50,494 nt of DNA, from the IMG/VR virus record IMGVR_UViG_3300031718_000015, positions 1-50,494 of that record, one strand, 5' to 3'. The notes beneath the pieces were generated by a model. The model saw only the letters and a program-made list of their open reading frames with translations, made no database searches and was not told the origin of the DNA. A program made the position numbers and the translations under genes. This DNA is from a virus (Duplodnaviria; Caudoviricetes). Every line of letters starts with the position of its first letter. The stretch's first letter is position 1. Shown piece after piece: positions 1 through 50,494 of this stretch.

Positions 1-127
1 AACAAGCCGAGCCTCATGTCGTAGCTTGGGACGCCAACGACACCCTTTATATTAATGCCCTAATGACCAATAAGAACGTCCACAAGATAACGGCCTGTAT
101 AGTATTTAAGGCTTGGGACGCTAGTCA
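1..127. repeat. Terminal overlap, copy 1 (identical to 50368-50494)
   Basis: Exact 127-bp match to the window end; the polymerase ORF reads through the junction in frame. Confidence 0.97.
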
Positions 128-746: not shown

Positions 747-889
747 TGGGTTTTATAACAACATTCGTTCAAATAGCTACGCTTGCTTTTGGTATAAGCA
801 CACTCGCTAAAGCGGCGCTACCTACACCCACGCCCTCTCAAAGTCCGACCTCGACACCTACTCCCGCTATCTATTCCAGCTTGCAATAG
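746..889 (+). CDS. 47-aa putative secreted Pro/Thr/Ser-rich peptide (not in ORF track)
   Basis: ATG overlaps the polymerase stop (TAATG). Translation MGFITTFVQIATLAFGISTLAKA-ALPTPTPSQSPTSTPTPAIYSSLQ has a hydrophobic stretch and an AxA site. Confidence 0.55.
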   Translation: MGFITTFVQIATLAFGISTLAKAALPTPTPSQSPTSTPTPAIYSSLQ

Positions 890-892
890 CTA
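868..892. repeat. 25-bp quasi-palindrome, copy 1
   Basis: TATCTATTCCAGCTTGCAATAGCTA. Confidence 0.92.
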
Positions 893-2199: not shown

Positions 2200-3556
2200 T
2201 GGTTTTACCTCCTACCACATCTTCGATAGCATCCATCCGTCCGAACGCCCGTTTGGGTGGACCATAGACCCATTCTGTTGCAACGAGGTCATCATATATT
2301 TCCTGAAGCAAGTCGGGCAGGTCCGTCCGATATCTCATCATGGGGACTTTCAAGGATTTATCCGGCTCGCACTTGAGCATCGCCTCTTTGGGTGTCCCAC
2401 CGTCAGCACTCAAGACAAAAGCGCACCCGTTCGGGCCGGATATTTCGGGACAGCCGGAGCTATCAAGTCTAATCTCATCAGGACTAACCGATTTCATGAC
2501 GATCTCTGGATCAAACCCGAACACTGGTACCCCCTCCGCTCGTCCCTTTTCTTCTTCGGGGTATGGTGGTACATGGAGTCTAAGGGCACCAAAGAACCGG
2601 TCAGCCTTGAAGGCTCCTTGCCATCTACGACCCATAGCTATGTCCGCAAATAACCCTGCGAGGTCACTAGTGATACTATGCGCGAGCGCATAAATAGCAT
2701 CATACCCTAAACGTGGTGTGAACTCAAGGAAAATCGGCTCATTCGAGTCTTTCTCAATAATGGCATTCACATCTACCGGCCCATTATACTTCCCCTTAAA
2801 TACAGCTGCAAGCGGAGCCAGTAGCTTTCCATATAGAGGACAACTACTAATATCGTCATAAGCCCAAACCACATTCCCTGCGCAACCCGTTTTCTCCCCC
2901 AAGTCGTGGTTGAAGAACCTATTTCTCTCGACAGTGTTATTAGCCAGTACAAAGTCAGTCCCATTAAACCATGCTTCTGTAGAAACCTCCACTCCCTCAA
3001 CCTTCGACGATAGAATGAAATCGGGGGTTTCACCTTCCTTAGCATAGAGACTTGCAATCCAATCGAGGAGCCTAACCATCTCATCCACGTTGCTTGCGAC
3101 GTAAGTGGCAGCCGTCTCTGAATCGCCATTATGCTTCCATACCCAGCCTTCATCTTCGTCACGCTCCCCTAAAAACTGTTTGGCTTTGTGCCAGGCGTTC
3201 GGGCCGGAAAAGCTCACAAACTCTGGAACCTCGATACCTGCCTTTCTCGCTGTATCAGCTGCAAGTATCCTTTCTTCCTCCAACTTGGCACTGAAATCAC
3301 CACTCCCGAACACTGCTTTACCGGACTTACGCAACCGCTCGGCCTCATTAGGTAACTCAAAATCATTCGAGTCAAACACCACCACATCGGCCCACCCAAC
3401 GCTGCCCGCAAAGTCCTTGGTTTTAGGTATAAGACCTTGCCCAACCGTTTGTGCTGTTGGTTCATAAATACAAAACCTCACTACATTACCTTCAGCTTCG
3501 ACACGTCGGGCGATTGCTAGGCTCTCACCCCAACCACTTCTAAACAAGAACTTCAT
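2189..3556 (-). CDS. PurD-like (phosphoribosylamine-glycine ligase-like) ATP-grasp enzyme
   Basis: WADVVVFD, KLEEER, WVWK, VEGVEVSTEAWFNG, LGEKTGCAG (cf. GPNTGGMG), GPVDVN, LEFTPRLGY. ATG 3556 overlaps the upstream stop. Confidence 0.85.
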   Translation of the reverse strand: MKFLFRSGWGESLAIARRVEAEGNVVRFCIYEPTAQTVGQGLIPKTKDFAGSVGWADVVVFDSNDFELPNEAERLRKSGKAVFGSGDFSAKLEEERILAADTARKAGIEVPEFVSFSGPNAWHKAKQFLGERDEDEGWVWKHNGDSETAATYVASNVDEMVRLLDWIASLYAKEGETPDFILSSKVEGVEVSTEAWFNGTDFVLANNTVERNRFFNHDLGEKTGCAGNVVWAYDDISSCPLYGKLLAPLAAVFKGKYNGPVDVNAIIEKDSNEPIFLEFTPRLGYDAIYALAHSITSDLAGLFADIAMGRRWQGAFKADRFFGALRLHVPPYPEEEKGRAEGVPVFGFDPEIVMKSVSPDEIRLDSSGCPEISGPNGCAFVLSADGGTPKEAMLKCEPDKSLKVPMMRYRTDLPDLLQEIYDDLVATEWVYGPPKRAFGRMDAIEDVVGGKTNGR

Positions 3557-6500
3557 TGGCAAATCCAGTTGCTACCGTTGAATATCGTGAGCTTGTATTT
3601 AGAGCCAGCACAAGCACCAGCACCCACACAAGTACCTGGAGTGCCATTATAGTCACAGACACAACCAAGACTACCCACAGGTGCTCCCACTGGTAAGGCC
3701 GATGTCAGTGGGCACTTCAAAAGCGGGCCGGCTGAGCTAAACGAAGATGACATACCCCAGGCGCTACCAATATTAGTCCAAGTACAACTCGACGAGCCGC
3801 CTTCTGGCACGGGTAAGGCATTCACATAAACTGTCCCACCTGACCCCGCGCCCATGCCACTAGTCGTCACATTGTATTTAATCGCGGTGCCTATGTTATT
3901 TACGGCCGTGACAGGACATGGCACATCAACTGTGCAATTATAGCCACTAGGTGTCACGCCACTTACGACTACTGACTCTCCCACGCTCACTACATGTTTC
4001 ATGCCATCGAGTATGGGCATGGCAGTATTGAGTGTCACCGTCGTCCCACTCTCACTAGCACTAGAAACCGCTTGCGATCCACCTGGTTCGAGTGAATTCC
4101 ACCCAGGAACCTGGCCCGAACCTTGCCCACTGATACATCCACCCCCGCTGGTATTCCTAAACGCATCAATATAAACATTCCCTGTCTGATGTGGTATAAT
4201 AACCTCATCCGGCCCGTAATAGGTCATCGGTGCCCAATCATTACACGGATATAAACTCGGCTGAATATCCAATACTTGTGGACTAGTCACCGCCGCCGCC
4301 GCGATTCGCCAGCCGGTTATTCCAGTTCTAACCCCATCTGCCATCTCATAAATGGGCACTCCAACCTTAGTATATGTATCAATCGACGATCTAACCGCCA
4401 ACTGATTTAACCCCGTAGCGAGTGTTCTATCACTATTATTCCCCATTGTCTCGCCGGTTTCGGCCCCAACACCTTGTGGGCCATATTGCCACTCATTACC
4501 ATCACCCTGTGTAGCAACGGTAGAATTAAGTGTCTCCATCACCCAATTGCCGAGTGTGCTGGTAGCTCCAGTGCCCCAATTACCTATTGATACAACAACG
4601 CCATTCCCCCAATGCTCGATGTTGTTGTACCATGTGTTACCAATCATCGTGAGTAAGGGCACTAATTGACCACCTTGGGTGGCTAGATTGATAGGTGCCA
4701 ATGGTGATATGTAAACCGAATCCTTAACATGATTGCCCTCAGTATGGTTACTAATCAATGTAACCACCTGACCGGCCTCTTGATAGAACCCAATACCCCC
4801 AAACCCTTGCCCACACGCTCCACCATATTGACTATTGGTAATCAAGATGGGCGAGTTGACTGCCGTCATATAGAAACCATAACACTCTCCATTTCCGAGT
4901 GTTACCGTAGCATCTACATAATCTAAAAAGCCTCCATTACCACTAAACAACCCTATTCCATAGGCACTCGCGCCAGGGCTATCGTTGTAAATGTGGTCGT
5001 TCATTATTTGGAGTTCGCTAGTGTCAGTCAGTGGTGACTCATTAGCGATGGTTAGGTTAGTCCCACTAACAATTCCAAATTCGGCATTATAAATCGAGTC
5101 ATTCTCGATTCTTAGCTTATCACTAGAGATTTGCTGGCCCGTGACGCCATCAGCGCCCTGAATTATACCCTGCATTCCACGACTACGTGTGCTCGTGCCA
5201 TTTATGGTCGTGACGTCTAGCACGATATTACGTAGCGACTGCCACATGCCATTCCAAACCTGCACCATCCACATATGGTCCGGCCCGTGCCACACAAGGC
5301 GTGTACCATTGTTATAGCTATTAAGTGGTGGTATTGTCCCTCCTGACGGTGTAAACCCAGGATACTCAACCCCACCCTGACTATCAGCCACAAGCTGCAC
5401 TTCGTGTGGGATGTTGAGTATCTTAGAACAGCCATAGGTGCCATGTGGCACTAGTGTTTGACCCCCTGGCGGACTCATCGCCGTTAGGGCGTTCATCGCG
5501 GCCTGGATAGCACCACAGTTCTCAGGTGTGATAACCACCGTCCCTGTGACCTGAGGTGGATTGCTTAGTGTTACGCTGTTAGAGGTAACGGCCACCACAT
5601 TAGCATACAGCACCCCATTCTTAGCCACCGTAGGCAGGTCTGATTGAGCATTAACGAGCCCCATGTCAGGATAGCCAGGTAGCAACGACTGGGGCAGGCT
5701 GAACGGCGCAGACCTAACCTGACAAGCTGGGCTTGCTGTTGGGCCGGCGCTTGGGGTTACAGTAGGTGTCGCCGTGGCTGTATTAGAGAACACGCCTGTG
5801 GGCGTTACAGTGGCTGTAGCTGTGGCAGTTGCTGTGGCGGTTGCAGTTGCAGTTGCGGTAGCTGTAGCCGTGGCACTCGTAGCTGTCGCGGTAGCTGTTG
5901 GAGTGGGTGCCGGTGTAAATGACGCTGTAGCTGTCGCTGTTGCTGTTGGTGCAAACGTGGGTGTTGACGTCACGGTCGGTGGAAATGACGAGGGTGTGGC
6001 TGTAGGTGTAGCACTCGGTGATCCACTACAAATATACGGCACATAACCCAGTGCACTCGGCACCGGACTGGCCATTGCATTTTCGATGAAATTACCTGAT
6101 AGTTTCCAAGGCTCTGATGGTTGGGTGCTCCAAACTACACTTAAAGCACTCTCGCCCAAGGTATTTGGGTCTATTGTAGTAAAGCCATAAGCATATGCTT
6201 GGTTACCAAAGTTATGTGGTGCATTCAGGCCCGAATCGGGCTTGACGAAGTTGACTGCATAGATTGATGGTGGAGATAACGACGTAGTCGCCGCCGCTTG
6301 TGGTACCGCCACTGGATCGCCCACGAGTATACCGGCAGTGCTATTACAACTAGACAATAGTGGGTTACCACTAATTGCCTGACAGGTATATTCATAGTCA
6401 ATCGGCCTGGCACCAAATGCCAAGATCGAATTAGAGTTTTGTGGTGAGCAGTCCCACGTTCCTGCCCCCACTTGCCCTGGAATCGGGCCGGTCCAGATGC

Positions 6501-6768
6501 AAGCGAGTGGTGGATTATACGTGGTCGAGCTTTGCGCAGGTGACTTAGTGGGAGTGCAATCTCGGCACTTAATCATCGTGCCTGGCCCTGCGCCTGGGCC
6601 GGTCCAGCCTATAACACCGGTGCCTGGAAGTTGAGTGAATCTATAGGTATTCCACCCATAAGAGTCATTATCAGGATTGGTACCCGTGTGCACATCCTGC
6701 GGGGCTGCCCAGACAGGCTGTGTTACTAGCATAGCGGCCAATAGAAAGCGTGCTATTAGTCTCATCAT
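3553..6768 (-). CDS. Tailspike/fibre-like beta-helix protein with signal peptide and (TA)n linker
   Basis: Signal-like MMRLIARFLLAAMLVTQPVWA; ILAFGA and AIQAAMNA...GGQTLVPHGTY pectate-lyase-like starts; Cys-rich termini; follows the tail module. Confidence 0.65.
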   Translation of the reverse strand: MMRLIARFLLAAMLVTQPVWAAPQDVHTGTNPDNDSYGWNTYRFTQLPGTGVIGWTGPGAGPGTMIKCRDCTPTKSPAQSSTTYNPPLACIWTGPIPGQVGAGTWDCSPQNSNSILAFGARPIDYEYTCQAISGNPLLSSCNSTAGILVGDPVAVPQAAATTSLSPPSIYAVNFVKPDSGLNAPHNFGNQAYAYGFTTIDPNTLGESALSVVWSTQPSEPWKLSGNFIENAMASPVPSALGYVPYICSGSPSATPTATPSSFPPTVTSTPTFAPTATATATASFTPAPTPTATATATSATATATATATATATATATATATVTPTGVFSNTATATPTVTPSAGPTASPACQVRSAPFSLPQSLLPGYPDMGLVNAQSDLPTVAKNGVLYANVVAVTSNSVTLSNPPQVTGTVVITPENCGAIQAAMNALTAMSPPGGQTLVPHGTYGCSKILNIPHEVQLVADSQGGVEYPGFTPSGGTIPPLNSYNNGTRLVWHGPDHMWMVQVWNGMWQSLRNIVLDVTTINGTSTRSRGMQGIIQGADGVTGQQISSDKLRIENDSIYNAEFGIVSGTNLTIANESPLTDTSELQIMNDHIYNDSPGASAYGIGLFSGNGGFLDYVDATVTLGNGECYGFYMTAVNSPILITNSQYGGACGQGFGGIGFYQEAGQVVTLISNHTEGNHVKDSVYISPLAPINLATQGGQLVPLLTMIGNTWYNNIEHWGNGVVVSIGNWGTGATSTLGNWVMETLNSTVATQGDGNEWQYGPQGVGAETGETMGNNSDRTLATGLNQLAVRSSIDTYTKVGVPIYEMADGVRTGITGWRIAAAAVTSPQVLDIQPSLYPCNDWAPMTYYGPDEVIIPHQTGNVYIDAFRNTSGGGCISGQGSGQVPGWNSLEPGGSQAVSSASESGTTVTLNTAMPILDGMKHVVSVGESVVVSGVTPSGYNCTVDVPCPVTAVNNIGTAIKYNVTTSGMGAGSGGTVYVNALPVPEGGSSSCTWTNIGSAWGMSSSFSSAGPLLKCPLTSALPVGAPVGSLGCVCDYNGTPGTCVGAGACAGSKYKLTIFNGSNWICQ
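5770..6010. repeat. Degenerate hexamer tandem repeat encoding (Thr-Ala)n / Pro-Thr linker
   Basis: Runs of GCTGTN/GCAGTN/GCGGTN with synonymous variation. Confidence 0.9.
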
Positions 6769-7611: not shown

Positions 7612-7636
7612 TAGCTATTGCGCTTTGGAATAGATA
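7612..7636. repeat. 25-bp quasi-palindrome, copy 2
   Basis: TAGCTATTGCGCTTTGGAATAGATA, abutting the stop codon at 7637-7639. Confidence 0.9.
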
Positions 7637-14495: not shown

Positions 14496-16399
14496 TATTG
14501 TGCTCCCATTTTGAGTTCGCTCTTGATCTTAGCTCGACTCAAGAGAGCTGCCACGCCATTATTGACACTATGAGATAGCTGAATCACAATCTCTTTGCCA
14601 CTCAAACCAATCGGCACTTTCGTGAATAGTGGCACCGGTGTGCTAAACGTCTGGCCACCATCAACAGAAAACGCGATCCGCCAATTCATTAAATCTGTCC
14701 CACTCGGCACATAATGCTGCCAAGTTTTCCACAAATCGACATTGTCCATCGGTAGCTGCTGATGTGTCGCTACCGCCACAAGCGAGCCATTTCCACCAGC
14801 ATTATCATACAAACGATAGACATTCCCATCAGCCCCACTGAACACGATATCAGTAGAACCATCGGCAAATTCAAGTTCTCGAATTGTAATAACCTCAGTG
14901 GGCAGTCCTTTAACAACGCTAAAAGGTGACTCCCGACCAAGGTCTGCAAGAATAATCTGATCGTTGTATTGTTTAGCATTTATGTTGACCGCGAGATATA
15001 GTATACTGCGATCGGTGTCGATGTCACCATTAACACCCGTTTGAAAACTACTCTTTTGAATCGAGTCGGTGAGGGGTTTGATTTGGTCACCGATAAATGG
15101 CGGGCCGGCCTCGGCAAATGACAATCGGGCGAGTGATTGACTAGTAAGGACGTAGACTTTATCCCCGTCTGTAATAGCGGCCCTTCGCCCGACAGCTCCG
15201 CGTCTAGCATCGACTGGTACCTCCACGAAACTTGTGAAATCTGTGCCTGTGATTTGCCTAGCTGTGTTCTTACCATTCACAATCAATCTATCAGACAGAG
15301 CCACTACCGCTGTGATCTGATCTAGTATTGTATTAGGAAACTTAAAGAAGTTATAAATCCCAAACGACTGAAAGTCCCCGATATTAGAGAACCATATAGT
15401 ATTCAGATTCGGGTCTACTAACCAATATCTCGACTGATACACGGCGCCCCAGACGGCACCAACGGGGGGAGGATTATTGGCACCGATAGCTGGGGCACCT
15501 TGTGGAGGGTTGACCAACAAGTTGTCATCGGTCGGCCCGATATTACCAGCGGCGTAGCCATCATAAATGGTGGTTGTTGCACCCTGGATTAAAATCGAAT
15601 CGTTAGAGTCAGATAGATTATTACCTGCTCCGTCATACAACATCGGGGGCAGGAAGAATGTTGCACCACCATCTCGTGTTCTATAGACCCGAATTCGGGT
15701 ATAACCACTCCCAATCGGTGGAGCAGGCGTAGGAATAACTAGCTTGACTTGTGTGATATAGGGAGTAGCTAGGGGTGGAGTATTCACTGTCGTCGTTATA
15801 ATCGACGAGTTCTCCACTGGTGATGGTGACGATTCGTGAAGGGTCTGTGGGTTGAAATAGGTCCATTCGTACTGTATCCCAACCTGCATGAAGTAGGTAT
15901 TGACATTTGATGCCGAAAATGAAGCTGTTAGCGATAACTGAGTCGCGGGTGGGCTAACACCTATTTGTGTAATCACCACTCCATCATATTTAACCGGTGG
16001 AAGTCCTGGCAGCGTGGACAATAGATAGTTAATTGCTTCGTTAGTCGGTAAGCCAGTACCTGGAAATATACACACAAAAGGCTGACCTGGATTCGCACCA
16101 AGATTGGCCAGTGGTAGATTAGCGATAAGGTCATAAATGACACCGTCCTGGCCGATGCCAAGGTCATAGAATGGTGTTGAAGGTTGCTGACGCCACGCGA
16201 TCATCTCGACAATTGGTGCGGCAAACGGGCCGCTGATCTTAAGTGGGCCAACTATCTTACGTATCGACCCAGGCACAAACATATCACAATTCTCTAAACG
16301 CTGCCATGAGTCATACGGACGCATCAGCACATCGGGCTGAATATTTAAGCCTTTAAAGCCCAGAAATTCGAGTGGCGGATTGTCAACCTTAACGCGCAT
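14495..16399 (-). CDS. Tail hub/nozzle protein (P22 gp10 / tail tubular B-like)
   Basis: N-terminal FKGLN...ENCD...GSIRK; beta-propeller-like IWFS, ITAVVAL, RLIV; insert with YEWTY...ESSPSP...IRVYRT. Confidence 0.7.
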   Translation of the reverse strand: MRVKVDNPPLEFLGFKGLNIQPDVLMRPYDSWQRLENCDMFVPGSIRKIVGPLKISGPFAAPIVEMIAWRQQPSTPFYDLGIGQDGVIYDLIANLPLANLGANPGQPFVCIFPGTGLPTNEAINYLLSTLPGLPPVKYDGVVITQIGVSPPATQLSLTASFSASNVNTYFMQVGIQYEWTYFNPQTLHESSPSPVENSSIITTTVNTPPLATPYITQVKLVIPTPAPPIGSGYTRIRVYRTRDGGATFFLPPMLYDGAGNNLSDSNDSILIQGATTTIYDGYAAGNIGPTDDNLLVNPPQGAPAIGANNPPPVGAVWGAVYQSRYWLVDPNLNTIWFSNIGDFQSFGIYNFFKFPNTILDQITAVVALSDRLIVNGKNTARQITGTDFTSFVEVPVDARRGAVGRRAAITDGDKVYVLTSQSLARLSFAEAGPPFIGDQIKPLTDSIQKSSFQTGVNGDIDTDRSILYLAVNINAKQYNDQIILADLGRESPFSVVKGLPTEVITIRELEFADGSTDIVFSGADGNVYRLYDNAGGNGSLVAVATHQQLPMDNVDLWKTWQHYVPSGTDLMNWRIAFSVDGGQTFSTPVPLFTKVPIGLSGKEIVIQLSHSVNNGVAALLSRAKIKSELKMGAQ

Positions 16400-16423
16400 A
16401 TCTATTGCATTTTGAAATAGCTA
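16399..16423. repeat. 25-bp quasi-palindrome, copy 3
   Basis: TATCTATTGCATTTTGAAATAGCTA; spans exactly from the upstream stop to the first base of the downstream ATG. Confidence 0.92.
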
Positions 16424-21650: not shown

Positions 21651-21913
21651 TCACTCTCCTTTGCTTTCTTGAAAAGCACAATATGTTCATCAAATGCAGC
21701 AATCATCTTAACCGCATGAGCTACTCCACTAGCCCACTTAACCTTAGCCATCATAGCACCTGGCCGGTCTTCTTCAGCACTCAGCGCTTCTTCTGCAACA
21801 GTGGCATACATTTCTTGCATATAACGCAAGATGTGTTGCCAAATATGCCCTTGCTTAAACAACTCAATTTCATCTTTGAGCTGAGATAACTCGCTATTTG
21901 TTGGCTCTGCCAT
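21647..21913 (-). CDS. Small helical protein downstream of portal
   Basis: MAEPTNSEL..., ATG at the edge of palindrome copy 4. Confidence 0.6.
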   Translation of the reverse strand: MAEPTNSELSQLKDEIELFKQGHIWQHILRYMQEMYATVAEEALSAEEDRPGAMMAKVKWASGVAHAVKMIAAFDEHIVLFKKAKESE

Positions 21914-21937
21914 ATCTATTCCAAGATGCAATAGCTA
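21913..21937. repeat. 25-bp quasi-palindrome, copy 4
   Basis: TATCTATTCCAAGATGCAATAGCTA; spans stop codon to next start codon. Confidence 0.92.
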
Positions 21938-26721: not shown

Positions 26722-26746
26722 TAGCTATTCCAAAGTGAAATAGATA
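26722..26746. repeat. 25-bp quasi-palindrome, copy 5
   Basis: TAGCTATTCCAAAGTGAAATAGATA; fills the whole gap between the stop at 26747 and the ATG at 26721. Confidence 0.92.
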
Positions 26747-27250: not shown

Positions 27251-30154
27251 TCATAACGCTAAAGCACTCCCTGTGAATCCACCTGTGACCGTTGAACAAG
27301 TACCAGCACTCACCTCCCATGCAAGCCAGTGAGTTGCTGTCATTGCTGAACTATTGATCGTCATTGCGAGTGTGGTATTGGCCGCAGCGAGTTGTCCGGT
27401 CGCGAGCGTCGTCGGAGATGCACAAGTTGTCGGGATAGTCGTACCACAATCTTGTAGTTTTATCGTTGGGAAGGTTGTGCAAGTGAGAGTCGTACCCGCA
27501 AAATTGACCGTCGCATTTTGAATCGTACCTGAGTTAACGACCAATACAGGGTTATATAGCGAGGTCGTTGAAGGCAGGGCAGCTAACTGGCCGGTAGCTA
27601 AATAGAGCGCGCTCGGAAGTGCGATAGGATACTGCACGCCATTCTTGAAACTGTTCGTGCCGTTGTAGGTGCCGGTGCCTTCTGCGCCGCCTGTCGGAGC
27701 GCCGCTGACCACGCCGCCGAGAGGAAACGTAACGGCGTCAGTGGTCACGGCGACGTTTTCTGCCGCGACGCCGCCAACTTCATCAATGATCGAGAATGTC
27801 GCCTGCGCTGCTGCTGCTCCGACGGTTTCGCCAAACCCCCAATGAGTCGCGAGTGTGCCGGAACCGTTATCTGAACCCATCGCGAAAAGGGCGAGGCTCC
27901 CTGCGGGCGCGTTCAACTGCGATATTGCATTGCCGCCTTGCGAGTCCGCCTTCAATCGCGTTACACCTGAACCAAGCAAGGTCAGTGTGCCGGTCGTACC
28001 GGCACTCGCTCCCAACGTCGGTGTTGTGCTGTAGGCTGGCACCGTGCTTGTCCCTGCACTGGTCAGGACCGAGCCCGCCGCCACCGCCGCGAGAGAGCCA
28101 ATAGTATTTGCGCTAGTCGCTTCGAGTAGGTCGCCGGTTGTAGCAGCATTCGGCAGTACGAGCGTCGACCAGAGCGGTGCGGTCGTCACGCCGCCAGAAC
28201 GGAGATAGCTACCCGCCGCAACGTCAGCTAGCCGCGAAAGGGCCGTCGAGCTTGAGGCATACAACAGATCGCCGATTGCTGGTGTCAATGCTGCGCCCGT
28301 ACCACCGAGCGCCGTTGCAACCGGTGTCGTCATTCCACCGTTGCAGGTCCACGCGCCGTTCAGCCGCCACGCCTCAGTGCCGTTACCGCTGCCGGTACAG
28401 GTTGAAGTGCCATAAGTGCCATCGGAGACTAGAACGTGTGAGCCATTCGCGATGGTTGGCAGCGTCGCAACTGTGAACGAAGGGCCATCGAATAGAAGAA
28501 TGTTCGCGTTGAGTGTACTATAGTTCGTCGTGTTGCCAACAAAGGTATTAGGACTAATAGCCCCACTAGCACTAGCATTCGCTGTGATAGCGGTTGTGTT
28601 GTTAACAAAGATATTATTAGATAGTGTTACACTAGTTGTGGCACCACCCCAAGAGAAGCCAGTTGTTGCACTTGCAATATAACTATTGCCCGTAATACTA
28701 ACTTGCGCGATAGTACCTGTGCCAGTTGTTGTCGTCGCTATTCCAGCCGTGCCGCAATCTAGTTCGTTGCCAGTAATATTAATCGCACTCAGCGCCGCAC
28801 CGTTCGCGGTCGCTTCGATCTCAAGGCACGTGGTTGCACCTCCAACATTCTCAATACTATTGCCAGTAAAGAAGAAATCTGAAGTCACACCATTAACGGT
28901 CGCATCGTTTACTAGTGCGCCATAAGTAACCGTGCCGCCAAGAAGAATCTTGTTGCCGTAGAACTTTAGGCCGCCACCAGATAGCCACTCGACGGCTGCG
29001 GTGCCGGTTGAACTAACCCACGAATTACCGAACACCGCACCGTCACCTGCGTCGATATTGGGGTTGTTGATTAATAGGCCAATGTTTACCATGTTGAGAA
29101 ATGAGTTGCTTGAGACTTTCCAAACACTGGTAGCTAATTCACCTAGTTGGTTCCAACCAGAACTGAAGGTCACATCATGCACAACGCTCTGATAGGACTG
29201 ATTTCCACCAGAGGCAGTGATCTGTAAAAGTGTACCAGCCACCGCCGATGCACTACCAGTCAGCGAAAGGTCATGAACGTTTACCGTCCCAAAATTCGCG
29301 GTTGTCAGCGCGAAGATTCCGACAGTCGTACTCGTCGAAGTGATAGTAGTCGAACCTTGTCCCTGTCCTTTTATCGTCAAATTGACGATGCCAGTGGCAC
29401 TGGACAAACTATTCTGAACACAAGTACCAGCAGGGTAAATGAGGGTAGAGTTAGCAACTGCTGCTGCCGCAGTAAGCGCCGCTTGGGCGGCAGCAGAATC
29501 GTCGGTAACGCCGTCGCACTTAGCGCCATAGGCAAGTACGTAGAATACTGACCCATAGGCGTTGTTGAAAAGTGGTGTCGCTGTCGCTGTGGGTGTAGCG
29601 GTAGCAGTGGCGGTAGCTGTACTAGTGGCTGTCGCGGTAGCAGTGCTAGTGGCTGTAGCTGTAGAAGTGGGTGTTGCAGTATTAAAAGCTTGACAGGCTA
29701 CACCACCATTTACTCCATTACCATATTCATAATCACCTGGTGTTGGACAGAACTGCGATGTGGGGCTAGCTGTTGGTGTGGCCGTTGCAGTGGCTGTTGG
29801 AGTAGCTGTGCTAGTGACTGTGGGTGTGAGTGTTATTGTAGGAACGCCAACGCAACCACCGAGCTGCCCGCTATTATTACATAGTGCCTGACCTGAAATC
29901 GGGGCCTGTGCGCTAGTAGGAAGTAAGGCATTACCAAAGATTAGACCATTAGAGAAACCGTTTTGAGGCACGAGCATCCAACCAGATGGTGTACAGTAAA
30001 ACACCTGATGTCGTGTGGCATCGATACACATCTGGTAGATAGTACAGGAATCGTAGGGTACGTTAGAACAAGGGTTACCAAAGGCAATCTGCTGAGCACT
30101 CACAGAGCCATGCAGGAGAGCACACAAAACGAAAGCTAGAACCAGACGTCTCAT
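27251..30154 (-). CDS. Secreted-type pectate-lyase-3-like beta-helix / fibre protein with (TA)n linkers
   Basis: Signal MRRLVLAFVLCALLHGSVSA-Q; VLAYGAKCDGVTDDSAAAQAAL..LIYPAG; fibre repeats GGTG..GDLLYA; many paired Cys. Confidence 0.72.
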   Translation of the reverse strand: MRRLVLAFVLCALLHGSVSAQQIAFGNPCSNVPYDSCTIYQMCIDATRHQVFYCTPSGWMLVPQNGFSNGLIFGNALLPTSAQAPISGQALCNNSGQLGGCVGVPTITLTPTVTSTATPTATATATPTASPTSQFCPTPGDYEYGNGVNGGVACQAFNTATPTSTATATSTATATATSTATATATATPTATATPLFNNAYGSVFYVLAYGAKCDGVTDDSAAAQAALTAAAAVANSTLIYPAGTCVQNSLSSATGIVNLTIKGQGQGSTTITSTSTTVGIFALTTANFGTVNVHDLSLTGSASAVAGTLLQITASGGNQSYQSVVHDVTFSSGWNQLGELATSVWKVSSNSFLNMVNIGLLINNPNIDAGDGAVFGNSWVSSTGTAAVEWLSGGGLKFYGNKILLGGTVTYGALVNDATVNGVTSDFFFTGNSIENVGGATTCLEIEATANGAALSAINITGNELDCGTAGIATTTTGTGTIAQVSITGNSYIASATTGFSWGGATTSVTLSNNIFVNNTTAITANASASGAISPNTFVGNTTNYSTLNANILLFDGPSFTVATLPTIANGSHVLVSDGTYGTSTCTGSGNGTEAWRLNGAWTCNGGMTTPVATALGGTGAALTPAIGDLLYASSSTALSRLADVAAGSYLRSGGVTTAPLWSTLVLPNAATTGDLLEATSANTIGSLAAVAAGSVLTSAGTSTVPAYSTTPTLGASAGTTGTLTLLGSGVTRLKADSQGGNAISQLNAPAGSLALFAMGSDNGSGTLATHWGFGETVGAAAAQATFSIIDEVGGVAAENVAVTTDAVTFPLGGVVSGAPTGGAEGTGTYNGTNSFKNGVQYPIALPSALYLATGQLAALPSTTSLYNPVLVVNSGTIQNATVNFAGTTLTCTTFPTIKLQDCGTTIPTTCASPTTLATGQLAAANTTLAMTINSSAMTATHWLAWEVSAGTCSTVTGGFTGSALAL
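29575..29840. repeat. Two degenerate hexamer repeat tracts encoding Thr-Ala/Pro-Thr linkers
   Basis: TATPTSTATATSTATATATSTATATATATPTATATP and TPTVTSTATPTATATATPTASPT. Confidence 0.85.
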
Positions 30155-32894: not shown

Positions 32895-33197
32895 TTACGG
32901 GGCGCCTGGGACCACAGCCTTGATCTGTGCAATGCCGGCGTTGACTGCCGTCACAGAGGCCTGAATCTGCGCCACCGCCGCTTCGACATCTGCATCAGAA
33001 GTCCCAGGGTTCGAGATAACTGCGAGAGCCGCTGTGATGTCAGCTGTTTCAGCTGTCACTGCGGTAGCCAGTGCCGCAATCGCGGCCTTGAGATCGTCAA
33101 TAGCTGCCATGATTTTCTCCGTCTTGGTTAGTATCTGTTTAAGTAACTGCCTATCATCATCCCAGAAAAATCCAGCTTTCGGTCCGACCTGTCCCAT
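32895..33197 (-). CDS. Ala-rich coiled-coil protein, probably leaderless
   Basis: ATG 33197 lies 7 nt after a TACAAT -10 box; the ORF-track TTG start is the -35 box itself. Confidence 0.6.
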   Translation of the reverse strand: MGQVGPKAGFFWDDDRQLLKQILTKTEKIMAAIDDLKAAIAALATAVTAETADITAALAVISNPGTSDADVEAAVAQIQASVTAVNAGIAQIKAVVPGAP

Positions 33198-33204
33198 GAG
33201 AAGC

Positions 33205-33233
33205 ATTGTAGCAAGCCCACAGGGCGATGTCAA
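33205..33233 (-). promoter_or_regulatory. Sigma70-type promoter of the late arm
   Basis: TTGACA-17 nt-TACAAT with extended TGn. Confidence 0.8.
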
Positions 33234-33284: not shown

Positions 33285-33309
33285 TAGCTATTCCAAATTG
33301 CAATAGCTA
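33285..33309. repeat. 25-bp quasi-palindrome, copy 6
   Basis: TAGCTATTCCAAATTGCAATAGCTA, in the divergent intergenic region. Confidence 0.92.
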
Positions 33310-35357: not shown

Positions 35358-35687
35358 GTGGGCACCCGAATAATTCCAGTCTCGCTGCTAGAAAAGAGAT
35401 ATGTTAAAGAGTGCGCGGCCTGCTACGAAATGTGGTTTGGTGAATATTGTCGCGTGAAGCTAGCAGGAATTATTAGTGAGTATACACCAAAGAAACCGCT
35501 TCCAGCACACCAACAAAGTATGCAAGAACCCACCACTTCTCTAACTCTAAAAATAGCACATGAAACTTGGTCATATGTTAGAACAGAAGCGAAACGACAT
35601 AACCTAACACTCTCTCAATATTGTCGTATTATACTACTCGATCTGGAGTTGCCTAATGCCAATCAAAACATCGCCCAAGAAGATTAA
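35358..35687 (+). CDS. Ribbon-helix-helix DNA-binding protein with N-terminal Cys cluster
   Basis: TSLTLKI..ETWSYVRTEAKRHNLTLSQYCRIIL; start re-called to the leaderless GTG. Confidence 0.6.
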   Translation: MGTRIIPVSLLEKRYVKECAACYEMWFGEYCRVKLAGIISEYTPKKPLPAHQQSMQEPTTSLTLKIAHETWSYVRTEAKRHNLTLSQYCRIILLDLELPNANQNIAQED

Positions 35688-35925
35688 ACTCGTGACGTAT
35701 GTTACAAGTATCGAACATGCCCAAGCAATGGAGACTGCAAGGTTGCAACAATTGTCACTAAGCGAGTGGCTCAGAGCACTCATTATTGGTGCATTTGCTA
35801 AAGTGGTTGTTATTCCAGCCCAAGTCAATCAACCTTATGTAAAACTCCCTGATGCAACGCAACTCCGTAATGATTTAATATTCGGTGATGTCAATGAACC
35901 CCACAATGAATCTGGAGACGAGTGA
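35656..35925 (+). CDS. Ribbon-helix-helix-like protein
   Basis: KLVTYVT..EHAQAMETARLQQLSLSEWLRALI; GGAG RBS. Confidence 0.55.
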   Translation: MPIKTSPKKIKLVTYVTSIEHAQAMETARLQQLSLSEWLRALIIGAFAKVVVIPAQVNQPYVKLPDATQLRNDLIFGDVNEPHNESGDE

Positions 35926-36307: not shown

Positions 36308-36332
36308 TATCTATTGCAATATGGAATAGCTA
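36308..36332. repeat. 25-bp quasi-palindrome, copy 7
   Basis: TATCTATTGCAATATGGAATAGCTA; exactly fills the gap between TAA (36307) and ATG (36333). Confidence 0.92.
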
Positions 36333-40821: not shown

Positions 40822-41144
40822 ACGACTACGAATTACGGAAGTTGGCTGAGACAACACGAGATAATGATGAGAAGTGGCGTCACCATTTCAACTCAAATAT
40901 AACTCCACAGATTGTGCTGCGCCTGCTCGACGAGAATGCGGCGCTACGCAAGGAACTTGATGACCGCTTAAAACTGGATTTAGCTGTCGAGAACGCCGCG
41001 CTCAAGGAACAGATTGCAGCGCTGACAAGCGGCGGTGCGTGTCTCTGCTCATGCGGCGCGCCAATGGCGCATATCTGCGAGAATCAGGCTCATGTGACCG
41101 AAGCTCTCGCCTCAGACGACGCCGCAGCGAAGGAGAAGTCATGA
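40818..41144 (+). CDS. Ead/Ea22-like protein
   Basis: ELRKLAE...TPQIVLRLLDE followed by a coiled coil. Confidence 0.55.
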   Translation: MNDYELRKLAETTRDNDEKWRHHFNSNITPQIVLRLLDENAALRKELDDRLKLDLAVENAALKEQIAALTSGGACLCSCGAPMAHICENQAHVTEALASDDAAAKEKS

Positions 41145-41386
41145 CTGATCAGCAACAAGCAACAGCGCGGCACGATGCGGCAGTTGGGCTACTACAAACG
41201 TATCATGACCTCAATCGTCGTTTCGGCTTCTGTCTAAAAGAACTGCGTCAGCGGGCGCAACTCTCGTTGAGGCAACTTGGCAAGCTCGTAGAGACAGACC
41301 ATGCCTATCTTCACCGCTTAGAACATGGAGTAAAGACAAACCCCTCAGAAGAACTCGTCAAACGGCTGCATAGGTGCTTGCGATGA
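41141..41386 (+). CDS. XRE-family HTH protein
   Basis: FGFCLKELRQRAQLSLRQLG...AYLHRLEHG..NPS. Confidence 0.82.
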   Translation: MTDQQQATARHDAAVGLLQTYHDLNRRFGFCLKELRQRAQLSLRQLGKLVETDHAYLHRLEHGVKTNPSEELVKRLHRCLR

Positions 41387-43510: not shown

Positions 43511-43778
43511 AATACTCGTGAAACGCTGGCCCGAAGTCGAAGAACGTGAGAGTGGTCTAATCCTGCCAGCGGCGGCCCGTGAGCTACCACAAATCGGCCG
43601 TGTCATCGCGGTGAGCGGCCCCATTGACGTTGAGGTGGGAGATGACGTGATATTCGAGAAGTTTGTCAAAACCGACTATCGAATCTACATCAAAGACAAC
43701 GAGTACTTACTCTTACCTTATGACGCTCTCTACGCTGTGATTGTCGGTGGCGTGAGCGGGATAGCTATTGCAGGATGA
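43488..43778 (+). CDS. groES: Co-chaperonin GroES-like
   Basis: FKPLGHRILVK...ESGLILP...GRVIAV...VEVGDDVIFEKF...EYLLL. Confidence 0.9.
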   Translation: MFKPLGHRILVKRWPEVEERESGLILPAAARELPQIGRVIAVSGPIDVEVGDDVIFEKFVKTDYRIYIKDNEYLLLPYDALYAVIVGGVSGIAIAG

Positions 43779-43786
43779 AATAGATA
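43762..43786. repeat. 25-bp quasi-palindrome, copy 8
   Basis: TAGCTATTGCAGGATGAAATAGATA; its last base is the A of the next ATG. Confidence 0.92.
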
Positions 43787-46591: not shown

Positions 46592-46840
46592 GTGAGATGT
46601 CCGAATCCAACATGTCGTAGTGCACGAATCTCGAACCTTAACACATGGCAACCAGATGACGCAGGGATTATAGCTGAACTTCGTGGGCTTAATATCACCC
46701 GTCGCCGCAAGAAATGTGGTGCCTGTAATGAAGTGTTCTTTACCGTCGAATGTGACGAGAAGGACTTTCTTCATCTACGCCGCAAAACGGGCCGGCTTGA
46801 AGTATCTCAACCTTCAGTCCGTCCAGGTATGACTAAATGA
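46592..46840 (+). CDS. NrdR-like zinc-ribbon protein
   Basis: MRCP..C......RRRKKCGAC...FFTVE; GAGGTG RBS; no ATP-cone. Confidence 0.65.
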   Translation: MRCPNPTCRSARISNLNTWQPDDAGIIAELRGLNITRRRKKCGACNEVFFTVECDEKDFLHLRRKTGRLEVSQPSVRPGMTK

Positions 46841-48207
46841 GTGCCAACTATCATGACGTCCCGCTCAAAAACATCATCATCGGCGAACGCTTCCGAATCG
46901 ACTACGGCGATATGGACGGACTTAAACGTTCTATTGAGAAATTTGGCCTTGCGTTTGAGCCAGTCCTCTTGGACCGTGCAAACAACCTCCTCGCTGGCGG
47001 TCGTCGTTTCAGAGCTTACAGCGAGCTTGGTCGTGGCACAATACCTGCTATCTACCTTGACGAAGTCGACGAGATTCTCAAACGTGAAATCGAACTCGAA
47101 GAAAACATCCAGCGCAAAGAACTCGACTGGCAAGAAGCGGTCAAACTAGCTGATGAAATTCACCGTCTCAAGACGGAAAAATACGCGGGTCAGATGGCGC
47201 CGGCCCGCGACGACCTTACCAGCGGTCCAGTCCTTTCTGATGAAGAACGCGAACGCGCGCATCGTTCTGTCCCCGCTTGGACCCAAAACAACACCGCCGA
47301 CCTACTTGACATCTCACCTGCGAACCTCACACGCAAACTTTACCTTGCTCGTGCAATGGAAGTCATGCCCGAACTCGCTAACGAAGACAGCGAAAGCGCG
47401 GCTCTTAAAAAGATTGACCGACGACTTGAAGACCTGGAACGCGAGTATAGTTATCGTAGACTCAAACTCGAAGGGAAACTAAATGAAGAAGGCCAAGTCT
47501 TACTAGGAGATTGTTGTGAGCTACTCGAAAAGCTCGATGACAAATCCATCGACTGTATTATTATCGATCCGCCGTACGGAGTCCTCGAAGCAGGAGGAAT
47601 TGGACGATACGAACAACACTTCGACGATGACCCTGTTACAGCTATGCGAACTCTATCAATCGCAGCCAAAGAGCTTCAAAGAGTAGCTAAGGATGACGCG
47701 CACATCTACATATTTTTCGGCATCAAAATGTGGGAACAAACGCGTGGTATATTTACTAGCCTTGGTTTTGACCCTGATCCTATTCCCCTCGTGTGGGTTA
47801 AGACCACCGGCTCGGTCGTGGATTGGGACTTCCGCTATGCAAACTACTGGGAACCAATTCTGTTCATTAGTAACCACTCTCGACGCCTCGCATTTAAGCG
47901 ACCAAATGTTTTCCAATACGATTCCGTCGCAAACAACCTGCGAGCTAACGTTGCCGAGAAGCCAGTCGAGCTTATCAGTGAATTGCTACGACTGTCTACA
48001 AATGAAGGAGATTTGGTCCTCGACTGCTTTGCAGGGAGCGGGGTTGTCGGAGTAGCGGCCAAGCAACTTAAACGGCGATTCATTCTCATGGAGAAAGACC
48101 AATCACAATGGAACGAGATACAAGTGCGCTTGGCCGCTGTCAGTGCATTAGCGAGCGAAGAATTGACGAGCCAGTCTGCGAACAATTCGTCCCCCAAGGA
48201 ACAATAA
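46837..48207 (+). CDS. ParB-N / HTH / N6-N4 DNA methyltransferase fusion
   Basis: ParB: RFR..GDMDGLKRSI..G..P...LLAGGRRFRA, ELEENIQRKEL. HTH: WTQNNTADLLDISPANLTR. MTase: IIDPPYG, EKPVELI, VLDCFAGSG. Confidence 0.9.
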   Translation: MSANYHDVPLKNIIIGERFRIDYGDMDGLKRSIEKFGLAFEPVLLDRANNLLAGGRRFRAYSELGRGTIPAIYLDEVDEILKREIELEENIQRKELDWQEAVKLADEIHRLKTEKYAGQMAPARDDLTSGPVLSDEERERAHRSVPAWTQNNTADLLDISPANLTRKLYLARAMEVMPELANEDSESAALKKIDRRLEDLEREYSYRRLKLEGKLNEEGQVLLGDCCELLEKLDDKSIDCIIIDPPYGVLEAGGIGRYEQHFDDDPVTAMRTLSIAAKELQRVAKDDAHIYIFFGIKMWEQTRGIFTSLGFDPDPIPLVWVKTTGSVVDWDFRYANYWEPILFISNHSRRLAFKRPNVFQYDSVANNLRANVAEKPVELISELLRLSTNEGDLVLDCFAGSGVVGVAAKQLKRRFILMEKDQSQWNEIQVRLAAVSALASEELTSQSANNSSPKEQ

Positions 48208-48475: not shown

Positions 48476-48699
48476 AAATCTTTCTCTACGCTGACGAAGA
48501 TAACAACATGCGTTTCAATGCTGAAATCGCACGCGAATACATACTCGAAATCATAGGTGATGCCGAACCGCAACGCACACGTGTTATGAACATCAAAAAC
48601 TCCAAAGAACTCGCCAAGCACTTCTTCACGGCAGCTATTTTAGTTGCCCAAGATGAACGCGCAATCGAGATTTTCAAACACGGGAAGTTTTCAACATGA
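48472..48699 (+). CDS. Hypothetical protein
   Basis: GGAG RBS; ATGA overlaps on both sides. Confidence 0.6.
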   Translation: MKIFLYADEDNNMRFNAEIAREYILEIIGDAEPQRTRVMNIKNSKELAKHFFTAAILVAQDERAIEIFKHGKFST

Positions 48700-50494
48700 G
48701 CCAATATTACGTCGGGCCGGAAGGTCCGTTAAATGCTAAGTTAGCCATCGTAGCCGAAAAACCCAGTTACGATGAAATCGCACAGAAGCGTCCACTCATC
48801 GGCCCAACCGGCCAGATGTTAATGCGAATGCTCAATCGTGTAGGGTTAAAACGAGAAGATGTCTACCTCTCTAATGCAGTCAAACGTTTTGATGCTGTTG
48901 GCAATCCAACAACTGAAGATATCGCGCGGGAACAACCCAGTTTATTCAGGGAACTTTCTACGTTACCCAACCTTAATTGTATTGTGGCGTTGGGTAATAG
49001 TGCTCTCGTCAGTCTCAGCAATTTTCATTACAATGACATTGGACACCGTCGCGGGAGTAAGATTCTTGCTTTCAATCGTAAGAAGATGATCCCGACATTT
49101 CATACCAGTTATGTCGTCCAAGGCAACTGGGAAATGGGGCCGGTTGTAGAGTTCGACCTCGCACGAGCCAAGAAAGAAAGTGAGTTTCCTGAGATTCGCC
49201 GGCCCGAACGCTACTACAACGTCCTACCCACATTCCGAGAGGCTTGTGATTGGTTAGAACACCTAGAACAAGATGGTGAGTGGCTCAGCTTTGACATAGA
49301 AACGCGCAAGGCCGGCCCGCACATGAACTGGTATCTCTCGACCATCGCATTCGCTAGTGACCCCCGTGAAGGCTTCTGTATTCCGTTTAGTCTACAAGAT
49401 CGCAAGTCTTACTGGCCCATTGAACAAGAAGCTATCTTATGGAAACGCATTCAACGTCTCTTAGCTCTCTCAGGTAAACGTTATGTCACGCAAAATGGAC
49501 TATTTGACTGTTGGCATCTCTACCGTCATGGTATTACAACTCCTTATATGGCGCGGGGCTTTGATACCATGTACGCTCACAGGTATCTTGCTGCTGATTT
49601 GCCTCACGCCTTGGATTTTCTCGTTTCGATTTATACCGAGGAAGAATACTACAAAGATGAAAGTGGCAAACACGAAAGTGAATTTCGAGTAAGTGACGAG
49701 CAATTCCAAGTCTACAACGCCAAAGACGCCGCGATAACACTTGAGGTAGCATTTGGTGAAATCGAAGATATGAAGGAGTTGGGCTTGTATGATTATTATA
49801 TGACCCATCTCCAAACTCAATTCGACGTCTTACACGCAATGAGGGTAAATGGCTTTCATGTCGACAAGAAAAAGAAAAGTGAACTCATCGATCGATTTGC
49901 AGCCGATATCCGTAATCGAGAGGCGAGCATTCAGCAAACTCTTGGATGGGTACCCAATACTAAGTCACCTATTGACTTGTCCAAAGTGTTTGAGAGATAC
50001 GGGATTACTCCTAAGAGAACGCCATCAACTAAGCAACCAGTCATTGACGAAGAGCACTTGCTTTCGTACGCCCAAAGGTGGCCAGCAGCAAGAGATATTC
50101 TAACCGAGTTTATTAGAATTAATCAACAACGCACCATGCTCTCGATGTATGCGTTGATGACGACTGACCCTAAGGACTTCTACCACGCGAGCTATGACCT
50201 AGCGAAGGCCCGAACGCTACGCCTTGCGAGTGAGGGACCATCCGAGGGCCATCTATTACCCAAGAAAAAGAACGCCGGCCCGCAAATGCAGAACCAACCG
50301 CATTCTATGCGGGCCATGTTTATTCCTGATAACCCTGAACTCGACGAATTAACCCAATTTGATCTCAAACAAGCCGAGCCTCATGTCGTAGCTTGGGACG
50401 CCAACGACACCCTTTATATTAATGCCCTAATGACCAATAAGAACGTCCACAAGATAACGGCCTGTATAGTATTTAAGGCTTGGGACGCTAGTCA
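48696..50494 (+). CDS. UDG-like + 3'-5' exonuclease + family A DNA polymerase (805 aa when joined to the stop at 746; absent from the ORF track)
   Basis: Hand translation. UDG4-like IVAEKPS..E....PLIGPTG..YLSNAVK..VALG..PTFHTS; exonuclease FDIET, QNGLFD, DTM, YNAKD; polymerase LRLAS, QMQNQP, FDLKQAE. Confidence 0.9.
   Translation, partial: MSQYYVGPEGPLNAKLAIVAEKPSYDEIAQKRPLIGPTGQMLMRMLNRVGLKREDVYLSNAVKRFDAVGNPTTEDIAREQPSLFRELSTLPNLNCIVALGNSALVSLSNFHYNDIGHRRGSKILAFNRKKMIPTFHTSYVVQGNWEMGPVVEFDLARAKKESEFPEIRRPERYYNVLPTFREACDWLEHLEQDGEWLSFDIETRKAGPHMNWYLSTIAFASDPREGFCIPFSLQDRKSYWPIEQEAILWKRIQRLLALSGKRYVTQNGLFDCWHLYRHGITTPYMARGFDTMYAHRYLAADLPHALDFLVSIYTEEEYYKDESGKHESEFRVSDEQFQVYNAKDAAITLEVAFGEIEDMKELGLYDYYMTHLQTQFDVLHAMRVNGFHVDKKKKSELIDRFAADIRNREASIQQTLGWVPNTKSPIDLSKVFERYGITPKRTPSTKQPVIDEEHLLSYAQRWPAARDILTEFIRINQQRTMLSMYALMTTDPKDFYHASYDLAKARTLRLASEGPSEGHLLPKKKNAGPQMQNQPHSMRAMFIPDNPELDELTQFDLKQAEPHVVAWDANDTLYINALMTNKNVHKITACIVFKAWDAS
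50368..50494. repeat. Terminal overlap, copy 2 (identical to 1-127)
   Basis: Exact match to the window start. Confidence 0.97.

Follow-up and report, generated by a model that had tools for sequence, protein, structure and literature searches.

Evenly spaced palindromes accompany a ParB-like methyltransferase fusion in a phage genome and are candidate binding sites for it

In a survey of the ParB-CTPase fold (CTP, cytidine triphosphate; PMC12704722, PNAS 2025), fusions of this fold to N6_N4 DNA methyltransferases are reported as enriched in phages and prophages, with a function that the survey's text calls unknown, 'perhaps anti-defense'. Nucleotide specificity is said there not to be predictable from sequence and the text, its supplements aside, gives no DNA sites, demonstrated nucleotide or function for these fusions. 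Here we analyse a protein of the surveyed architecture, encoded at 46837..48207 (plus strand) of the IMG/VR virus record IMGVR_UViG_3300031718_000015, together with eight evenly spaced 25-bp near-palindromes in the same genome. The whole record, 50,494 nucleotides (nt) long, was analysed and is referred to below as the window. Taken alone, the protein is an unremarkable representative of a known family; the novelty lies in reading it as a system, in which the family is paired with genome-tiling, lineage-specific palindromes that behave like loading sites. The eight palindromes are probably where the fusion protein binds, and to the full model, in which nucleotide-gated spreading aims methylation at the phage's own DNA, we give a rough probability of 0.4. 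Literature searches found no paper pairing a ParB-methyltransferase fusion with evenly spaced cognate palindromes.

The locus shares several features with chromosomal and plasmid ParB-parS systems (Spo0J/ParB): the N-domain carries Boxes I, II and III, which align to the Spo0J-CDP (cytidine diphosphate) and ParB-CTP structures, a ParB-type helix-turn-helix (HTH) follows, and the candidate sites are palindromic, mostly 15-19 bp in relatives. It departs from them in having no ParA, in carrying an enzyme in place of the C-terminal dimerisation domain and, in contrast to the origin-proximal cluster of parS, in having eight or more sites that tile a 50-kb lytic phage; moreover, the window site is 25 bp long and its halves are not identical. 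Noc of Bacillus subtilis, a ParB paralogue with many dispersed palindromes (NBS), is likewise similar, its structure (7ng0) being the second-best structural sequence match, but it has no methyltransferase and is host chromosomal. Noc recruits DNA to the membrane. KorB of plasmid RK2 (with its OB sites), BisD of ICEclc and VirB are described as orphan-like ParB folds with palindromes on the mobile element, some near promoters; unlike the window protein they have no catalytic domain and act with partner regulators. KorB sites are scattered over RK2 and, to our knowledge, even spacing is not a known feature of KorB, BisD or VirB sites. The inverted-repeat sites of N15 SopB also lie at scattered positions. 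N15 resembles the window in combining a phage ParB-type protein with several separate inverted-repeat sites, IR1-4 (PMC7205306), but is a plasmid-prophage with SopA, four partition sites and no enzyme. The methyltransferase core is of the beta class, like CcrM and M.MboIIA. M.EcoGIX and M.BceJIII are described as replication-coupled, single-strand-specific plasmid methyltransferases (PMC7736820), and M.EcoGIX illustrates that mobile-element methyltransferases can target their own replicating DNA and not the host chromosome. Unlike what is proposed for the window enzyme, all four are aimed by single-strand preference or their own target recognition and not by a fused ParB-HTH. Lastly, a phage ParB-like activator is described as promoting a thymine dioxygenase in the post-replicative modification of double-stranded DNA (PMC13229309); in that account activator and enzyme are separate polypeptides and the activator has no obvious DNA-binding domain, whereas the window enzyme is fused and an HTH is present.

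A preliminary description of the window had placed a ParB N-domain with an arginine patch, an HTH and a complete DPPY/FAGSG methyltransferase in one open reading frame (ORF). The quoted motifs are all present. The gene starts with ATG, encodes 456 amino acids (aa) and falls into three parts, all on the plus strand. The N-terminal NTPase-fold domain (NTP, nucleoside triphosphate) covers approximately residues 1-118 (46837..47190), with Box I at R18, Box II as GGRRFRA (residues 53-59, within LAGGRRFRA, 51-59) and Box III as EENIQR (88-93, within EENIQRKEL, 88-96). There follow a putative ParB-type HTH at about residues 143-182 (47263..47385, approximate boundaries; WTQNNTADLLDISPANLTRKLYLARAM) and a beta-class N6-adenine/N4-cytosine methyltransferase domain (47482..48207), in which motif IV (DPPY, 244-247) stands ahead of motif I (FAGSG, 398-402). 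Residues 238-426 matched Pfam N6_N4_Mtase (PF01555) at E 7.3e-25, with 88.6 bits where the cut-off is 26.7, and residues 21-92 matched ParB_N (PF02195) at E 1e-5, its 25.9 bits lying 0.4 below the cut-off of 26.3. PHROGs matches were to a DNA methyltransferase family (phrog_67, E 3.8e-48) and several ParB-like families (e.g. phrog_12047, E 3.4e-16); TIGR00180 (E 3.2e-10, under its cut-off) and TIGR04285 (E 1.9e-8), the latter a further likeness to Noc, were also matched. The best PDB alignments of the N-terminal part were to ParB/Noc proteins of the CTP type, Spo0J-CDP (6sdk, E 2.3e-7) and then Noc (7ng0, E 1.7e-5), with AGGRRFRA falling on AGERRFRA and LEENIQRKEL on LLENLQREDL. In the Atlas model of residues 1-215, residues 1-204 aligned at TM 0.70-0.72 over ~180 residues with bacterial ParB_N+HTH_ParB partition proteins, and among the cluster members of its structural neighbours ParB_N occurred in 96-100% and HTH_ParB in 72-100%. 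Pfam evidence for the HTH was weak (HTH_8, E 0.047, and no direct match to HTH_ParB); the domain was placed by this model and by a scaffold conserved across 16 fusion proteins.

Conservation points to selection on the nucleotide pocket. Across an alignment of 41 fusion proteins (31-65% identity to the window protein), G54, R57, E86 and E89 are invariant and R18, R56, A60, E88, N90 and R93 are conserved in at least 90%, so the pocket is under selection. Judged by sequence, the protein has the architecture of a ParB-type switch, with an N-domain holding the Box residues, a ParB-type HTH and a complete beta-class methyltransferase. The closest solved chains to the last are CcrM (6pbd, E 1.4e-16) and M.MboIIA (1g60), and PADLOC classed it as MTase_II/orphan methyltransferase; at 73.7 bits against a cut-off of 830 for the CcrM equivalog NF050803, it lies so far under equivalog cut-offs that its target sequence is not inferable. 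At E<=1e-30 the fusion family numbers 563 cluster representatives, most of them full length, and at 1e-10 it numbers 4412; lengths are for the most part 400-470 aa. As had been described, no ParA was recognised: a six-frame search of the window for ParA-type ATPases (PF13614, PF01656) returned no matches, with controls positive in 14/14 genomes. Having a methyltransferase as its C-terminal half and no ParA-type ATPase, the protein is not a partition ParB.

The palindrome TAKCTATT-N9-AATAGMTA matches the window eight times without mismatch, against 0.04 matches expected, and none of 100 shuffles reached eight, which upholds the earlier account of a 25-mer recurring every ~6 kb. The palindrome continues inward as S-CA-NNN-TG-S. 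Site 1 (TATCTATTCCAGCTTGCAATAGCTA, 868..892; like the others, not assigned to a strand) lies between the DNA polymerase and primase genes and abuts an 11-codon ORF, and site 2 (7612..7636) follows immediately on the stop of a 1658-aa gene. Site 3 (16399..16423) fills the gap between a stop, whose TAG is within the site, and the ATG of a 634-aa gene. Site 4 (21913..21937) likewise spans a stop and the ATG of an 88-aa ORF, and site 5 (26722..26746) is flanked by a TAA stop on one side and the ATG of a 111-aa gene on the other. Site 6 (33285..33309), the sole site whose outer arms are identical, occupies a divergent region. Site 7 (36308..36332) exactly fills the gap from a TAA stop to the ATG of a 71-aa gene, and site 8 (43762..43786) overlaps the last codons of a GroES-like gene and the A of the ATG of a 339-aa gene. 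Overall, a TAA stop directly precedes three sites, a TAG stop forms the first three bases of two, and in five of the eight the next ATG is directly adjacent to the site or shares one base with it (the ORFs of 634, 88, 111, 71 and 339 aa); one site is followed by AGGGAG with an ATG 16 nt later. Six sites have at most four bases under any called ORF, and the other two are coding only through upstream TTG starts of a crude caller. Readings of the site as sigma54-like, CIRCE-like or a leaderless promoter were dropped by eye, the required bases being inconsistent across the eight copies. The window's best sigma70-like promoter match (TTGACA-17-TACAAT with TG, 33205-33233, minus strand) faces the structural operon, and its -35 element lies ~50 nt from site 6, which is upstream of it. 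This match overlaps the called start of ORF 32895..33233, so the true start of that ORF probably lies further downstream.

The asymmetry of the sites is itself regular. Seven of the eight combine one TATC arm with one TAGC arm and position 9/17 is never complementary (8/8; P ~0.03 each), and the polarity of this asymmetry is unrelated to the direction of transcription. These features bear on whether the sites act as RNA, that is, as hairpins in polycistronic transcripts for processing, attenuation or translation initiation. In favour, sites lie on the transcripts of both operons, and the five that touch a start codon leave no room for a Shine-Dalgarno spacer. However, the predicted folds are weak (-3.4 to -10.1 kcal/mol, z below -2 in only 2/8) and 4/8 sites have a minimum-energy fold other than the palindromic hairpin; the arms are mismatched at position 3/23 in 7/8 sites and at position 9/17 in 8/8, showing that sequence is kept and not pairing; orientation is mixed relative to transcription; site 6 is upstream of promoters; and Rfam gave no match for the sites. 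An RNA role is, on this evidence, very improbable.

The gaps between neighbouring sites range from 3.0 to 8.8 kb (coefficient of variation 0.27) and the largest is 8787 nt, so every base lies within ~4.4 kb of a site, just as the preliminary description had calculated. This spacing is more regular than that of eight random positions (P=0.0003) or eight random gene junctions (P=0.0004). With random gene junctions as the null, spacing was also regular in a Desulfofustis phage with eight sites (P=0.004) and marginally so in the closest relative of the window (G003, P=0.03), and regular spacing was seen in the relative loci L271 (P=0.0008), L065 (P=0.009) and L084 (P=0.023).

Comparison with relatives revealed that the sites keep their positions and change their sequence in concert. 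A single near-complete close relative was found in the collections, G003 (46 kb), which shares 34 proteins with the window at 35-78% identity, the fusion protein at 62%. The window motif has no copy in G003 even with one mismatch allowed; instead G003 has its own palindrome, TATGCA-N3-TGCATA, in six exact and two degenerate copies. Four of these match window positions: past the giant gene (G003 5697, counterpart of site 2), before the homologue of the 634-aa gene (43577, site 3), before that of the 88-aa ORF (37578, site 4, which has a further counterpart at L017 988) and upstream of the terminase end of the structural operon (32591, site 6). The region around site 5 is missing from G003. Scans of IMG/VR with TerL and capsid, and of metagenomes with capsid, returned only G003 and fragments of 1.6-9 kb, two of which have a site where one is expected. 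In one of them, whose capsid protein is 86% identical, the site is of the window type and abuts an ATG; the other has a variant with the same inner core. A scan of IMG/VR with the window 25-mer pattern found three contigs with one match each; these were judged to be chance, two of them giving 2 and 1 relaxed matches against 1 and 1 for a reversed control.

The Desulfofustis phage has the gene order of the window and just five BLAST-detectable shared proteins, the fusion giving the best match (E 5e-44). Its own palindrome, GCTAT-GTCCCAA-N-TTGGGAC-ATAGC, is present in eight copies and, as in the window, is a 25-mer with a CCA-N3-TGG core; one copy (41281, counterpart of site 6) lies upstream of the terminase end as it does in the window. 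Two of its sites (L024 249 and 2251) share a ~22-nt flank that has TATAAT at 9 nt from the palindrome. The two are oppositely oriented and look like a site-plus-promoter unit copied in inverted form. Across lineages the palindromes follow one design, an A/T-rich centre within CAA-W(1-3)-TTG-like arms, with a total length of 15-25 bp. A shared motif goes together with a shared putative recognition helix, and no part of the protein differs more between the window and G003 than the HTH (42% vs 64% identity). With positions and design kept while the copies of each genome change their sequence together, the pattern calls for a recognition factor that is encoded by the phage and diverges alongside the sites.

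This placement also bears on whether the fusion protein might bind the palindromes and act only locally, either as a transcription regulator of the KorB/BisD kind or as a methyltransferase marking just the palindrome and its immediate flanks, with no spreading over kilobases and no genome-wide protection. All evidence for binding counts equally for such local action. Moreover, the sites fill stop-to-start gaps and five of eight touch the next ATG; site 6, ~50 nt upstream of a promoter, has same-place counterparts in G003 and the Desulfofustis phage; TATAAT lies 9 nt from two Desulfofustis sites; and KorB and BisD are described as ParB-like clamps that regulate transcription from palindromes. 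However, regular spacing with a maximum gap below ~9 kb in several unrelated genomes is unexpected of operators, site orientation is independent of the direction of transcription, and the strictly conserved nucleotide pocket suggests a switch and not a static binder. The placement itself is non-discriminating, because a genome that is ~95% coding leaves a 25-bp palindrome hardly anywhere to lie but at gene boundaries. We therefore regard purely local action as unlikely.

Co-occurrence of ParB-HTH-methyltransferase genes with dispersed palindromes, the comparison that the preliminary description had put forward, was measured in loci of at least 12 kb, a locus counting as positive if it held at least three dispersed copies of a palindrome family. 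An IMG/VR scan seeded with the fusion gave 80 loci, with the ParB_N-HTH part in 80/80. With a first detector, which required palindromes with exact arms, 10/58 fusion loci were positive against 0/174 shuffles, and the sites in positive loci were mostly between ORFs. In a first control of 80 loci with an unfused methyltransferase of the same class, none of which had ParB_N-HTH, 1/51 was positive (p=0.0075 vs fusion loci); after de-replication the figures were 8/44 fusion clusters and 1/44 control clusters (p=0.015). Every fusion locus carries the module of a single podovirus supergroup (fusion gene, PolA, primase), so this control is confounded by phage type. A second control was consequently drawn from the same supergroup through the polymerase of 119X and EBPR3, both of which lack the fusion; a primase and a polymerase alignment were too divergent to seed scans, and the seeds used were the unfused methyltransferase and the 119X + EBPR3 polymerase alignments. 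Here 48 of the 49 loci had no fusion domain, and a palindrome family was found in 0/48 of them (p=0.0016; 0/21 clusters, p=0.035). The sole fusion-positive locus of that scan, L271, had five copies, and over its complete 45-kb genome the count rises to 12, the reversed pattern giving 0.

A detector of higher sensitivity, able to recover 8/8 window sites, scored 12/59 fusion loci, 1/51 loci with an unfused methyltransferase, 0/48 fusion-less loci of the supergroup and 0/30 shuffles (combined Fisher p=3e-5). The proposed link between gene and sites has thus gained comparative support (12/59 fusion loci vs 1/99 controls) and the architecture of the candidate system stands; on the other side, three of eight fusion genomes show no site family. 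Relatives that keep the sites without the gene, which would have spoken against the link, did not appear among the 48 fusion-less supergroup loci, which represent one branch. Similarly, among whole or nearly whole genomes without a window-type fusion a family was found in 0/4 (MW202554, 119X, Kuura, EBPR3). One of these, MW202554.1 (L026), has a 426-aa gene annotated parB at 573-1853, just upstream of the polymerase, where relatives have the fusion gene; neither half of the window protein matched it by tblastn at E 1e-3, and it may be a different ParB-fold fusion.

Alternatively, the palindromes could be operators or promoter elements of another phage factor, the ParB-methyltransferase being an ordinary orphan anti-restriction methylase whose ParB part aids non-specific DNA binding or nicking, and the co-occurrence reflecting shared ancestry. 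All fusion-positive loci belong to one supergroup and 47/59 fusion loci have no palindrome family; the early genes are mostly without family assignment and could hide a binder; and a ParB-methyltransferase with non-specific nicking has been reported. There are also named candidates within the window. Its one other clear HTH regulator is an XRE-type protein (41039..41386, HTH_31 E 7e-10), a weak ribbon-helix-helix (RHH)-like ORF (35656..35925) is conserved in G003 beside a site, and a zinc-ribbon ORF overlaps the start of the fusion gene and is conserved in G003 only. However, the XRE-type protein has no homologue in G003 or the Desulfofustis phage, both of which keep sites, and neither the RHH-like nor the zinc-ribbon protein was detectable in the Desulfofustis phage despite its eight sites. 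Of nine candidate proteins compared, the fusion alone occurs in each of the three site-bearing genomes. Within +/-10 kb, enrichment in site-positive loci was seen for no other family (best p 0.054, in 5/12), and families present in all site-positive loci are equally present in the site-less branch. None of the 48 fusion-less supergroup loci has sites, and the single fusion-positive locus of that same scan has them. An unrelated binder with co-inheritance seems unlikely, although with local action it is the main alternative to the preferred model. A 179-aa early protein was also compared with a 'transcriptional regulator' of the Desulfofustis phage and rejected, the two having no similarity.

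The immediate neighbours of the fusion gene are the zinc-ribbon ORF, two small ORFs and the DNA polymerase gene; no nuclease family was noticed among them, only part of the genome's ORFs having been scanned. The zinc-ribbon ORF (46592-46840, 82 aa, CxxC...CxxC) has a stop that overlaps the fusion ATG by 4 nt. Its G003 counterpart has 66% identity and a palindrome (17299) immediately before it; in more distant relatives the ORF was not detectable. Its product could be a partner or regulator.

Regular spacing might also be expected if the sites were DNA marks, for example site-specific nicks, landmarks for packaging or replication, or hot spots of recombination, with the ParB-like domain possibly acting as the nuclease that cuts them. 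Related podoviruses are described as having motif-associated single-strand nicks (PMC11780129), and a nicking ParB-methyltransferase has been reported. However, the nick motifs described in that paper are asymmetric, on one strand and clustered, whereas the window sites are palindromic and evenly spread, and the analogy was rejected. In addition, the N-domain retains Box II/III residues of the ParB/Noc type, and the 119X-like phages of the supergroup lack such palindromes. We find this explanation scarcely credible.

Of the readings considered, we prefer nucleotide-gated spreading from the palindromes. The protein would be an orphan ParB-like NTP-switch protein whose C-terminal dimerisation domain has been replaced by a beta-class DNA methyltransferase, and the eight evenly spaced 25-bp near-palindromes would be the parS-like sites that it binds. 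A site would be recognised by the two HTHs of a dimer, nucleotide (CTP by analogy, possibly another NTP) would close the N-domains, and the released ring would slide over some kilobases of DNA. Given sites at most ~8.8 kb apart, the tethered methyltransferase would be enriched over the full length of the replicating phage genome, giving efficient modification in cis and probably protecting against host restriction. That the fusion protein binds the palindromes we consider likely from the comparative sequence data; given binding, nucleotide-dependent spreading is somewhat favoured.

Several observations weigh against this model. A position of the sites close to the fusion gene is only a weak trend (6/14, p 0.045), and in the window the gene is 3 kb from the nearest site. 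The correspondence between recognition helix and motif is confounded by relatedness. Placement at gene boundaries and near promoters also fits a purely regulatory role, and most relatives have shorter, more symmetric sites (15-19 bp) than the window. The 47 fusion-positive loci without a palindrome family are matched among whole or nearly whole fusion genomes, where a family was found in just 5/8: the window, G003, the Desulfofustis phage, G005 and Vibrio phage ABTNL-3 (whose status is uncertain, as the HTH region of its protein failed to align) have one, and none was found in G004, Mel-JY34 and MW202489. Either the fusion family can do without the sites or the detector misses them. The fusion-less controls come from one branch (21 clusters), and shared ancestry could explain part of the association. 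Published work on related proteins is also relevant. N6_N4-methyltransferase fusions were among the 50 proteins selected for testing in PMC12704722 and are not named as NTP binders in its text, which reports that SAM-methyltransferase fusions (SAM, S-adenosylmethionine) bound ATP. Mutations of pocket residues in the phage ParB-like activator are described as without effect (PMC13229309), and a Bacillus cereus prophage ParB-methyltransferase, as cited in PMC3592412, is reported to nick DNA non-specifically.

The window is a complete IMG/VR virus record (CheckV completeness 100) with an exact 127-nt direct terminal repeat (1-127 = 50368-50494), leaving a unique length of 50,367 nt. The DNA polymerase gene runs across the record end (48696..50492, continuing at 3..746) and, together with the repeat, this indicates either a circularly permuted record or one assembled from a genome with terminal redundancy. 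A leftward block from ~33.2 to 2.2 kb encodes the terminase small subunit, TerL-like, capsid-like and 1658-aa proteins, and a rightward block from ~34 kb across the record end to 2.1 kb holds the early genes, a Sak4-like gene, the fusion gene, a family-A DNA polymerase and a primase. A six-frame search of the window found no tyrosine integrase (control genomes positive, 14/14). Two soil metagenome DNA runs contain window sequence, one of which may be its source, no RNA run is listed as containing it, and megablast of 24 kb of the window against annotated phages gave no match.

Further features were noted. The GroES-like co-chaperonin gene (43488-43778; phrog_3188, E 4e-14) has its last codons within site 8. 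TATATA-rich blocks lie in syntenic positions of the early region in the window (35119-35140) and G003 (30961-31003) and may be a DNA-unwinding element or origin. A second intergenic repeat, 37 nt in two copies that are 78% alike (36580-36616 and 42710-42746), lies in each case between plus-strand early genes. Repeats with a 12-nt period (GCTGTAGCTGTGGC type) at 5749-5909 and 29558-29829 are inside large minus-strand ORFs (3553..6768 and 27251..30154) and so encode repetitive, low-complexity protein segments. In G003 (L008) an 83-nt perfect direct repeat occurs in the early region at 4775-4857 and 7939-8021, 3.2 kb apart.

Fusions of the ParB fold to methyltransferases are among the commonest uses that phages make of the ParB-CTPase fold, and candidate DNA sites are now at hand in several genomes for this common but unexplained class of enzyme. 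The model makes a quantitative prediction, that action is limited by distance with sites no more than ~9 kb apart, and diverged natural pairs of protein and site are available for specificity swaps. In its widest and rather doubtful form, phages would commonly possess a nucleotide-gated clamp-methyltransferase system loaded only at phage-specific palindromes a few kilobases apart, giving their own DNA a protective methylation pattern in cis and ignoring the host chromosome; the palindromes would form a private address code in which protein and sites co-evolve, and related phages in one cell would not service one another. If the model is true, a ParB-type switch would for the first time be known to carry an enzyme along DNA, with a possible route to programmable, locus-loaded DNA modification, and it would represent a new way for a mobile element to confine an epigenetic mark to itself.

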